Source: an uncultured virus (IMG/VR IMGVR_UViG_3300010157_000035)
Taxonomy: Duplodnaviria > Heunggongvirae > Uroviricota > Caudoviricetes
DNA: 64,000 bases
Direction: 5' to 3' (one strand)
Virus record (IMG/VR): IMGVR_UViG_3300010157_000035
Location: 1 to 64,000 of that record
In this document: piece by piece, positions 6,913 through 19,265 of the stretch
Numbering within the stretch: position 1 is the stretch's first letter
Layout: every line of letters starts with the position of its first letter
Notes under the pieces: generated by a model
Told to the model about the DNA's origin: nothing
The model's database searches: none
Seen by the model: the letters and a program-made list of their open reading frames with translations, nothing else
Position numbers and translations under genes: made by a program

Positions 6913-7113
6913 TCATCTGACAATTTTTACTGCTCTAGCATCTTGATCACGTATGGCCCATTCAGTTGAACCCACACGTATGTGAAGACAACAGGCCATG
7001 CGTCTTAACACAGTCACAGTCTGCGCAGCAACAATGCCCATTTGTTGCAACCGTTCATTGGCAACACTGGTAATCACTGCTACATCTCGTTCTTGTAAAT
7101 CGTTCAATGTCAT
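6913..7113 (-). CDS. feoA: FeoA-domain protein
   Basis: RLQQMGI...VTVLRR...IRV SH3-like FeoA pattern, 66 aa. Confidence 0.65.
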   Translation of the reverse strand: MTLNDLQERDVAVITSVANERLQQMGIVAAQTVTVLRRMACCLHIRVGSTEWAIRDQDARAVKIVR

Positions 7114-8342: not shown

Positions 8343-8432
8343 TGGCGGAGAGTGTGGGATTCGAACCCACGATAGTGTTGCCACTATGACGGTTTAGTAG
8401 ACCGTTGGTTTCAGCCGCTCACCCAACTCTCC
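8343..8432 (-). tRNA. tRNA-Ser(ACT), class II
   Basis: long variable arm, G73, stem ACGGT/ACCGT, loop CTACTAA. Confidence 0.9.
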
Positions 8433-8927: not shown

Positions 8928-9149
8928 TTATTTCACTTTGGACATGTATCGAATCATATCAATTTTTCCTTCTTGCATTTCCAACAAGGCATCAACAGCA
9001 GTAACATACGCACCGGTTTCTCTGGCTCGGCGTTTGAGTTCACGCAGGCGTTGCGACACAGCAATGACCATGTCATAACGTGAGTCAGCTAAACCAACAC
9101 ATTTTTCAAGGTCAATTTGGGTGCCGCGACTGAGAGTAACTGGTTTCAT
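8928..9149 (-). CDS. rpoZ: RNA polymerase omega subunit-like protein
   Basis: SRYDMVIAVSQRLREL and ALLEMQEGKI resemble RpoZ conserved regions. Confidence 0.65.
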   Translation of the reverse strand: MKPVTLSRGTQIDLEKCVGLADSRYDMVIAVSQRLRELKRRARETGAYVTAVDALLEMQEGKIDMIRYMSKVK

Positions 9150-13258: not shown

Positions 13259-13344
13259 TGGTGGAGACGGCTGGAGTCGAACCAACAGTGCCTGAAGGCG
13301 GCGGATTTACAGTCCACTGGGGTTACCAATTTTCCTACATCTCC
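13259..13344 (-). tRNA. tRNA-Tyr(GTA)
   Basis: variable arm, loop CTGTAAA, CCA. Confidence 0.9.
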
Positions 13345-13348
13345 AAAA

Positions 13349-13750
13349 CATATAAGAACACACTCACGTTTCTGATGTCTCTGTTGGCTATGGGCCAACC
13401 GAATGTGTTCATATATGCTCTGCGTCCCCCGGCGGTAATTATAGTGTATCAGAAATTTCGTCAAGTTGCCCTAACTAGTCTGTTCGTCACTTACACCTTC
13501 CACCCGCTTCCCGACAGGGACCGTTCTCGCATTGCTAGCGCCGGTTAGGTTGGACCGCACATACATCCATGTTCTATCATGGCTTCTGTGTGAAACTTTT
13601 CGTTTCAGAACCACCCGTGGTTGTCATACCACTTCTCATCGTCTGGGTCAGACTAGCCAATGACAGTTGGCACGTTAGGTGGGCTGGCCCCATAACGGGA
13701 TACCACTTAACCTGAACTGTCTTATGCATTTATGTTCAGGCACCCTAACT
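13349..13750 (-). ncRNA. candidate large structured non-coding RNA within the tRNA array
   Basis: no credible ORF; ten or more short hairpins readable by eye; family not recognised. Confidence 0.55.
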
Positions 13751-13825
13751 TGGCGGCTTCAAGGAGAATCGAACTCCTATTAGTGGCGTGACAAGCCACC
13801 GTACTAACCATTATACTATGAAGCC
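13751..13825 (-). tRNA. tRNA-Asp(GTC)
   Basis: loop TTGTCAC, G73, CCA. Confidence 0.9.
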
Positions 13826-14214: not shown

Positions 14215-14243
14215 ATTTTACACTAACTCCTATATCTTGTCAA
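14215..14243 (-). promoter_or_regulatory. sigma70-type promoter for tRNA array
   Basis: TTGACA-17 nt-TAAAAT. Confidence 0.75.
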
Positions 14244-17008: not shown

Positions 17009-17101
17009 TTAGTTTTTCCTTATAAGAATGTGGACGTGTGCCCAACATATTATTTAGTGGTTTTACTGATACACAGTAATTTTTATCCACTCAAACAGTC
17101 G

Positions 17102-17126
17102 AAAAGAGACCCGCCGAAGCGGGTTC
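17102..17126 (-). terminator. intrinsic terminator after tmRNA
   Basis: ACCCGC-TTCG-GCGGGT then CTCTTTT. Confidence 0.8.
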
Positions 17127-17450
17127 TGGTAGTTTCTGTTACGAGGCATTTCCTGCCCTATCGCGGCGATTAAACTGCGAAAGATTCGGCTTTCACTGTG
17201 CGAGCAGAGAACTTGACGTTCTTACCAGAAACAGTTACTTCGCCTGTAGATGCTTTTGCATTTACTTGATTTGCTTGATTTACGGTCATCGCCTACCGTG
17301 CTGTCCACTCTGTTACTCTTTGCCCTGTCGAAAACCAAGTCATCCCCACCTAAATATACCCCATACACTTAGGTGGAGATGCCGGGAGTCGAACCCGGGT
17401 CCAGAACACTTTTCTCTTTGCTTCTTCCCTTACGGGCTTTACAGCAATAC
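17127..17450 (-). ncRNA. ssrA: circularly permuted (two-piece) tmRNA
   Basis: T-arm/acceptor 3' half CCGGGTTCGACTCCCGGCATCTCCACC (ends 17372) precedes 5' half GGGGATG (17347); G3:U70 Ala determinant; tag frame 17259-17170 AKASTGEVTVSGKNVKFSARTVKAESFAV*. Confidence 0.85.
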
Positions 17451-17456
17451 TTTTAT

Positions 17457-17780
17457 TTACCCATTTAATCTTGGCGCTAGGTCCTTATAACTTGCTACAC
17501 CCGACGCCACAGCACCAACTACAACTTGTTTGAATACATTTTCTCTGCCACGAGTTCTATAATAAGATGCCTTTTGTTTACTAGTTAAGAAAGCAACTCT
17601 CATTTCAAGTGCTCCAATGTCTGTGTTAGAATTTCCATATTTGGTTTCCGCTAAAAACGAAAGAGTTCTTTTATAAGTTTGTCCTTTCCAATTTTTCACG
17701 GGCCCTAATATCAGTTTCAAAGACTCAAACAGCTCTTTGTCTTCGCCATTGTTCCAAGTATATAGGTGTTTTCTTGCCAT
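17457..17780 (-). CDS. hypothetical protein
   Basis: ORF with AAGGA SD. Confidence 0.65.
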   Translation of the reverse strand: MARKHLYTWNNGEDKELFESLKLILGPVKNWKGQTYKRTLSFLAETKYGNSNTDIGALEMRVAFLTSKQKASYYRTRGRENVFKQVVVGAVASGVASYKDLAPRLNG

Positions 17781-19061: not shown

Positions 19062-19265
19062 TTAAGCAGGCATAATATTTGATGCCTGCTTGCCTTTTGG
19101 GCCCTGAACCAAGTCAAATTTTACCACTTGGTTTTCTTTTAATGTTTTGAATCCATTAATATTGATTGCTGAAAAATGTGCAAATACATCCTCACCCCCG
19201 TCATCTGGTGTAATGAATCCGAAACCTTTTGCGTCATTAAACCATTTTACTTTACCTACTACCAT
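19062..19265 (-). CDS. cspA: cold-shock protein
   Basis: [12 protein letters not shown] (RNP1) and VFAHF (RNP2). Confidence 0.95.

Follow-up and report, generated by a model that had tools for sequence, protein, structure and literature searches.

The window analysed here, the first 64 kb (64,000 nucleotides) of a 130,621-base viral contig that is 38% complete, encodes, on the minus strand throughout, 14 tRNAs and a permuted tmRNA of the beta type. This tmRNA is encoded in two pieces and is of the betaproteobacterial type (17079-17469), which suggests a betaproteobacterial host. A sigma-70-like promoter is located upstream of a run consisting of tRNA-Met, an ORF, tRNA-Pro, tRNA-Asp, the RNA described below, tRNA-Tyr, tRNA-Glu and tRNA-Leu, and no terminator-like site was found on the minus strand from this promoter to the core of that RNA. 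A tRNA-Ser with the unusual anticodon ACT (8343-8432) is encoded as well, and near the tRNA cluster lie an RNA polymerase omega-like subunit (8928-9149), a cold-shock protein (19062-19265) and a FeoA domain (6913-7113), again on the minus strand.

The 402 nt between tRNA-Asp and tRNA-Tyr (13349-13750) had been described in a first-pass annotation as a hairpin-dense, non-coding segment. All 12 listed pairs of stem arms were found on the minus strand in the order given, and the interval indeed fills the gap between the two tRNA genes. The absence of a credible ORF holds too: six short ORFs overlap the interval, and 91 homologues keep no frame, with lengths in all three phases (19, 24 and 48) and any frame open in at most 18 of the 91. 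The reading of the interval as one RNA of around 400 nt is not supported, as it consists of three modules with a conserved unit of about 200 nt (Table 1). Likewise, the stem at 13349-13417, taken to be a closing stem, closes only its own cargo of 35 nt and recurs elsewhere without the core. Two of the hairpins described (TGAAAC/GTTTCA and CCATG/CATGG) sit inside a lineage-specific insertion, and the three pseudoknots, which are the main features of the RNA, had been missed. What stands is the proposal that the phage tRNA operon contains a structured, non-coding RNA whose class is uncatalogued; its release by tRNA processing is probable.

Table 1 Features of the RNA interval and its surroundings (window positions)
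Feature	Position	Strand	Description	Basis
Sigma-70-like promoter	14215..14243	-	11/12 consensus matches	consensus match only
tRNA-Asp(GTC)	13751..13825	-	5' neighbour of the RNA interval	
5' module	13681..13750	-	two-hairpin three-way junction; invariant loop with palindrome AUGCAU	
Conserved core RNA	13416..13681	-	single copy in the genome	model R1, 204 positions
P1 hairpin	13656..13671	-	loop 13661-13666 kisses P3 loop (pseudoknot 1)	covariation
P2 hairpin	13641..13653	-	loop pairs with first half of linker (pseudoknot 2)	
P3 hairpin	13617..13632	-	loop 13622-13627; preceded by invariant GAAG	
GGGUGGU linker	13610..13616	-	read by P2 and P4 loops	
Lineage-specific insertion	13559..13609	-	two hairpins; absent in 43/49 aligned members	
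P4 hairpin	13541..13558	-	loop pairs with second half of linker (pseudoknot 3)	
P5 hairpin	13528..13540	-	bulged U, GCAA (GNRA) tetraloop	covariation
Long 3' arm	13420..13527	-		covariation, conservation
Conserved 3' end AGCA	13416..13419	-	followed by short U/A-rich spacer or next tRNA	
Wrapper cassette	13347..13417	-	conserved stem of about 17 bp with small cargo	recurrence, folding z
tRNA-Tyr(GTA)	13259..13344	-	3' neighbour of the RNA interval	

Rfam searches of the whole window at the gathering thresholds retrieved nothing but tRNAs. At E ≤10, the interval gave no family match, only one chance snoRNA match of 18 bits. Twenty homologous loci yielded no family for the core RNA either, and eight loci with divergent members only a 22.7-bit permuted-tmRNA match spanning a tRNA arm. 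No description of the family was found in the open literature, with subscription journals outside the scope. Fremin (2023; PMC10690425) lists IMG/VR candidates of up to 151 nt, so that fragments of the core RNA may stand there unnamed; four files of that work contain no match to it.

The folding energy of the 402 nt is better than in shuffled sequences on the minus strand (z −2.44, none of 100 shuffles as good) and less so on the plus strand (z −1.53, 5 of 100 as good). Most of this signal comes from the 3' stem (z −5.44 for 13347-13420), with the 5' module at −1.39 and the core alone at −0.92 (34 of 200 shuffles as good) in a program that cannot score pseudoknots. The real support for the predicted structure is comparative and not based on folding energy.

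A 17-base word from the window matched at least 120 loci in IMG/VR, and BLAST limited the homology to the middle of the 402-nt interval. From these, 76 distinct full-length copies were obtained, while 17 loci were left out as incomplete or missed by the start rule. Model R1 was trained on 48 copies with less than 93% identity and the window copy, 49 sequences in all; it matches the window over positions 1-204 with 191.8 bits, a score for a sequence that is itself part of the training alignment. R1 also matches 91 of the 92 loci from the viral scans and all 100 loci taken from 119 metagenome hits. A second viral search pattern mostly gave chance hits, with an R1 match in 4 of the 98 loci tested (of 119). 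The family, a unit of about 200 nt, thus counts over 100 loci in viral and over 100 in metagenome sequences. Most members measure 195-210 nt; the 266 nt of the window copy result from two peripheral insertions, one behind the linker and one in the distal arm. A single copy per genome is present in 40 of 41 carriers. A 525-kb record (G017), possibly a chimeric assembly, contains two copies (119583-119797 and 424190-424392) in separate tRNA arrays. In locus L069, an intact copy is preceded, 600 nt upstream, by a decayed copy of the RNA 5' end (285-432); by eye, the two are separated by a nuclease-like ORF, as if an insertion had duplicated the 5' end. Among 50,697 records of cultured phages, neither the window nor a short homologue had a match. 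GTDB genomes were searched with one exact pattern, a weak search of which the sole match (L124) is a chance hit that crosses a protein-gene end and covers model positions 126-188 only.

In the 49 aligned sequences, 96.1% of the cells of 51 named pairs are paired, compared to 83.6% after shuffling and 37-47% when the alignment is slid. Double changes occur in 32 of the 51 pairs against 18.8 in shuffled alignments (0 of 500 shuffles as high), supporting the fold. In addition, G-U wobbles alternate with A-U or G-C on the minus strand only. The covariation shows that the RNA folds into a compact 5' domain, in which three pseudoknots lock four hairpins together, then a GNRA hairpin and finally a long arm whose bulges and loops are invariant. 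This arm comprises a covarying basal helix, a purine bulge, a GCGG/CCGC helix, a conserved internal loop and a variable distal hairpin. Of 203 columns, 61 are at least 97% conserved (46 sequences), with 36 of them outside nested helices and 17 fixed by the search word.

In the pseudoknots, loop 1 kisses loop 3 and the seven-base linker pairs with loops 2 and 4. Since these pairs lie outside R1, they were counted on the metagenome alignment, which has phages in common with the first alignment and is therefore only partly independent. Their 10 pairs are 97.5% paired, and 7 of them show double changes against 2.9 after shuffling (0 of 500). In pseudoknot 1, GUC/GAC is swapped for AUC/GAU and all three pairs have double changes in this alignment; pseudoknot 2 is 100% paired, with double changes in 3 of 4 pairs. 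Pseudoknot 3 is 99% paired and is the weakest by count, with double changes from few lineages (one sequence per alignment). By eye, the linker and both loops have changed jointly in five loci, with three different solutions; compensated linker swaps are found in L022, L185, L139, L339 and L366. Judged from these comparative data, the core is a real, uncatalogued and strongly covarying phage RNA, a new family among the orphan RNAs of phage tRNA clusters. For the gene and its fold alone, our confidence is high.

The 5' module structure was retrieved in 20 of 91 pattern hits, in all 20 directly 5' of the core. It stems from few lineages (8 distinct sequences among the 20) and occurs in 5 of the 142 core contexts only. 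The module could belong to the RNA as an optional 5' domain, for a total of about 335 nt, or could be a separate RNA of tRNA size linked to the core. No fewer than three further types of structured module recur next to the core 5' end: the first in L029, L106, L342 and L373, with a weak tRNA score (36 bits) and a 7-bp closing stem, the second in L040, L049, L346 and L359 and the third in L008, L026 and L044. On the 3' side, the wrapper is a cassette separate from the core. Of 21 array regions, 13 contain it and 6 have it immediately downstream of the core; its cargo (35-230 nt) is unrelated between loci. Its stem overlaps the last bases of the core and is perhaps an RNase III-type processing stalk. 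Besides the window, wrapper stems occur in L001, L009, L018, L021, L022, L024, L026, L029, L032, L035, L043, L053, L121 and L139; the large cargoes of L029 and L043, for which no Rfam model comes near its cut-off, might represent additional RNA families.

The locus includes a tRNA for 61 of 73 distinct copies, in no case on the opposite strand. For 37 of the 73, the distance from the 3' end of a tRNA to the start of P1 is 5-8 nt, with exactly 6 nt in 30, and nine tRNA species precede P1 in these 37 copies. At the other end, a tRNA starts 2-9 nt behind the terminal AGCA in 24 of the 73. In a wider set of 142 contexts, 59 abut a tRNA and 83 are without an adjacent upstream tRNA; other upstream contexts are tRNA-like modules, A-rich spacers or, in three cases, a strong promoter. 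In L398, a promoter with 12/12 consensus matches ends 10 nt before P1, which would give a similar 5' end in the absence of a tRNA. In two carriers, the nearest 8 kb or so around the RNA contain no tRNA at all, and this suggests action in trans.

Complete carrier genomes are about 160 kb or about 345 kb in size. Complete carriers encode a Gp23-type capsid protein (4 of 4), a gene that is missing from the fragment to which the window belongs. Twenty records picked by capsid similarity all lack the RNA, with only 8 of them holding tRNAs, and the 4 of these with full arrays (24-34 tRNAs) remain negative with search filters off. The RNA is an accessory gene. There is no constant protein neighbour in 21 regions, the best cluster occurring in 9 of them at varying distance, and a 70-residue piece of the commonest neighbour protein has no Pfam match. 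Nor was a linked mobility gene found among the carrier regions examined. A bacterial Y RNA was considered and rejected, as a Ro60 (TROVE) gene is present in none of 18 carriers, 11 of which are at least 90% complete, by a search with positive controls in 2 of 14. Taken together, the lack of a fixed phage protein neighbour and of Ro60 suggests that the partner belongs to the host.

In 4 of 4 metatranscriptome studies, the core and the tRNAs are spanned by contigs that come from relatives, and one contig joins tRNA-Tyr directly to a core. These contigs fit expression of the core, bearing in mind that they are assembled, carry no strand, ends or level, may include DNA carry-over and do not allow genes to be ranked by depth. 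The absence of contig cover over the 5' module and the ORFs is uninformative, because the contigs come from relatives only. Adapter ends at about 13655-13660 in two studies give a weak hint of a nearby 5' end.

The best explanation, to which we would give roughly an even chance, is that the core is an accessory, stable and self-contained RNA occupying a tRNA slot of the operon, freed by tRNA processing, that acts in trans, without catalysis, as a scaffold or decoy for a host factor as its putative partner. The core would likely be co-transcribed with the tRNAs and freed when host enzymes mature its neighbours, namely by RNase P at the 5' end of the next tRNA, by 3'-end trimming behind the CCA of the previous one and possibly by an RNase III-type cut in the wrapper stem. 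Once folded, the RNA might be a rigid scaffold that withstands nucleases and captures a single conserved host factor by means of its invariant unpaired bases. As the target, an RNA-directed component of translation or of tRNA-targeting defence seems most likely; it would be titrated or blocked so that phage translation continues. According to PMC10264068 and PMC11555353, phage tRNAs counter tRNA-targeting defences. The core would be useful in some hosts and dispensable in others. A scaffold or decoy is favoured because of the accessory nature of the gene, its movement between distant phage groups, the lack of a partner gene in the phages and the many unpaired bases that are kept fixed. This scaffold step, which could equally well turn out right or wrong, is based on the anatomy and context of the RNA, and unpaired purines that never vary would be just as expected in a catalytic core or where two RNAs interact.

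Another possibility, which we consider unlikely, is a GOLLD/ROOL-like RNA with loop-loop pairs between molecules, forming an RNA-only dimer or cage in which the palindromic loop of the 5' module adds a dimer contact. According to 10.1101/2024.12.08.627333, PMC5737381 and PMC12990946, GOLLD and ROOL are ornate pseudoknotted phage RNAs near tRNA clusters, with unknown function. Like GOLLD (RF02032) and ROOL (RF03087), the core has kissing loops, a conserved centre with variable 5' add-ons and peripheral insertions and the same genomic setting, as described in PMC5737381 and 10.1101/2024.12.08.627333. Moreover, covariation cannot separate intra- from intermolecular kissing, and all 7 aligned 5' modules keep AUGCAU unchanged. 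However, the core is about 200 nt long, about a quarter of the GOLLD length (400-830 nt for GOLLD and ROOL), its short linker pairs resemble a local knot, and R1 gave at best 2.5 bits on two true GOLLDs with filters off, without any nhmmer match. A short GOLLD variant was rejected as well: there is no RF02032 match in the genome and none reciprocal to the true GOLLDs. The GOLLD 3'-domain model (416 positions, cut-off 150 bits) found nothing in the genome at E ≤10; on the positive control, the true GOLLDs that 2 of 40 related phages carry, it reached 204 bits. For ROOL, the model (574 positions) had no match in the interval or in the genome, the latter search being without a positive control. 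In L121 and L122 (G008 and G016), a full GOLLD lies about 2 kb from the core RNA, in L121 followed by a wrapper stem. As GOLLD co-occurs in 2 of 40 carriers, the core is no plain GOLLD substitute. Unlike GOLLD and ROOL, it was not seen in GTDB genomes by the one exact pattern.

A trans-acting RNA that binds tRNAs or acts on them as a catalyst, either a minimal or permuted RNase P analogue or a double T-loop elbow binder, is a doubtful alternative. By eye, the motifs AGAAC, GA-GAAGU, GGGUG-RA-GG and the terminal GAGCA resemble the RNase P consensus, in an order obtainable by circular permutation. Class A RNase P RNA (RF00010) shares with the core some short purine-rich motifs and, elsewhere, a location in phage tRNA arrays. 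The core differs from it by the lack of the P4 pseudoknot and by its helix order, and the linear RF00010 model does not match it. A P4-like pairing needs a C that only 22 of 83 sequences possess and that is itself engaged in P1. A permuted RNase P has no support: nine circularised RNase P sequences were scanned with the family HMM, and none gave a match. A capsid relative without the core RNA (G059, a complete 168-kb phage) carries a true class A RNase P RNA of 191 bits (L640:5242-5571) inside its tRNA array, which also holds a tmRNA, and five more viral records (G068-G072) have RNase P RNA. RNase P RNA is found in 0 of 42 carriers and the core in 0 of 6 RNase P-bearing records, a mutual exclusion that is not significant, because RNase P RNA is rare in such phages (1 of 20 capsid relatives).

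Double T-loop elbow binders, such as the T-box, RNase P and the L1 stalk, pair AGNNA with UGNNA (PMC3664808). UGNNA is present in the core, where it is fixed by the search word; its UGGAA loop has one UGAAA variant (L126), which would suit tRNA binding. Two UGGAG variants and the lack of a conserved AGNNA partner argue against it. A T-box-type NCCA-pairing bulge was also rejected, as the GGUGG linker changes in step with internal loops and gives way to other sequences in the five loci named above, so that it is no general CCA reader. To the same low degree, one might think of a new catalytic or tRNA-binding class, a triple-pseudoknot machine of about 200 nt with which jumbo phages would replace or oppose host tRNA processing and whose swappable 5' domains would tune assembly, for example a compact RNase P analogue with its own fold.

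Minimal HDV-like ribozymes are about 50-60 nt in size, and the core is much longer than the theta ribozymes, which belong to this type. A theta-like cis ribozyme is very improbable. Like theta ribozymes, the core starts directly behind a phage tRNA 3' end, at the fixed distance of 6 nt behind the CCA in 30 of 73 copies; cleavage by theta ribozymes takes place no more than 5 nt from the tRNA 3' end, as stated in PMC10879173. However, P1 is a simple hairpin and not an HDV nested double pseudoknot, the interval has no HDV-like Rfam match at E ≤10, and covariation supports another topology. Moreover, there is one copy per array of about 25 tRNAs, and the 83 of 142 contexts without an adjacent upstream tRNA and the two carriers with none within 8 kb do not fit a cis-acting cleavage at tRNA ends.

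There is very little to be said for the whole 402 nt as one functional RNA: the three modules abut without spacers, the wrapper overlaps the core end and the 5' module is always linked to the core, but the wrapper lies behind the core in only 6 of 21 regions and turns up elsewhere with other cargo, and most members are 195-210 nt between two tRNAs. Least credible of all is a selfish or decayed element such as an intron or transposon remnant without phage function, for which the patchy distribution and the decayed fragment beside a nuclease-like ORF in L069 would speak, but which is at odds with the single copy, the strong compensation, the lack of a linked mobility gene and the absence of any match to Rfam intron models in the interval (E ≤10).

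The core can finally be set beside other known phage RNAs. In its way of working it may resemble GOLLD/ROOL or rnaC/rnaD of T4, but it belongs to none of these families. manA (RF01745), a multi-hairpin RNA of aquatic phages with about 190 positions, is near the core in size; its model has no match in the interval at E ≤10 or in the genome at E ≤1, the latter without a positive control. Further sources for the comparison with known RNAs were PMC10085705 and PMC4810234. According to PMC5737381, bacterial and phage RNAs this big and knotted are rare, and those studied are ribozymes or unusual assemblies. The T4 species 1 and 2 RNAs, rnaC (139 nt) and rnaD (119 nt), have roles that are left unexplained in PMC3014915 and PMC9697503. 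Like the core, they are stable RNAs in tRNA slots of the tRNA cluster of a Gp23-type phage. Compared with them, the core scores under 4 bits without any nhmmer match, is longer, contains three pseudoknots and ends in AGCA, whereas, by eye, rnaD ends in CCA and rnaC has a tRNA-like T arm. The core family has clear ends and many compensated natural variants, and is small enough for transcription, probing and cryo-EM. It thereby makes an old question testable, namely the role of the non-tRNA RNAs in phage tRNA clusters such as rnaC and rnaD of T4.
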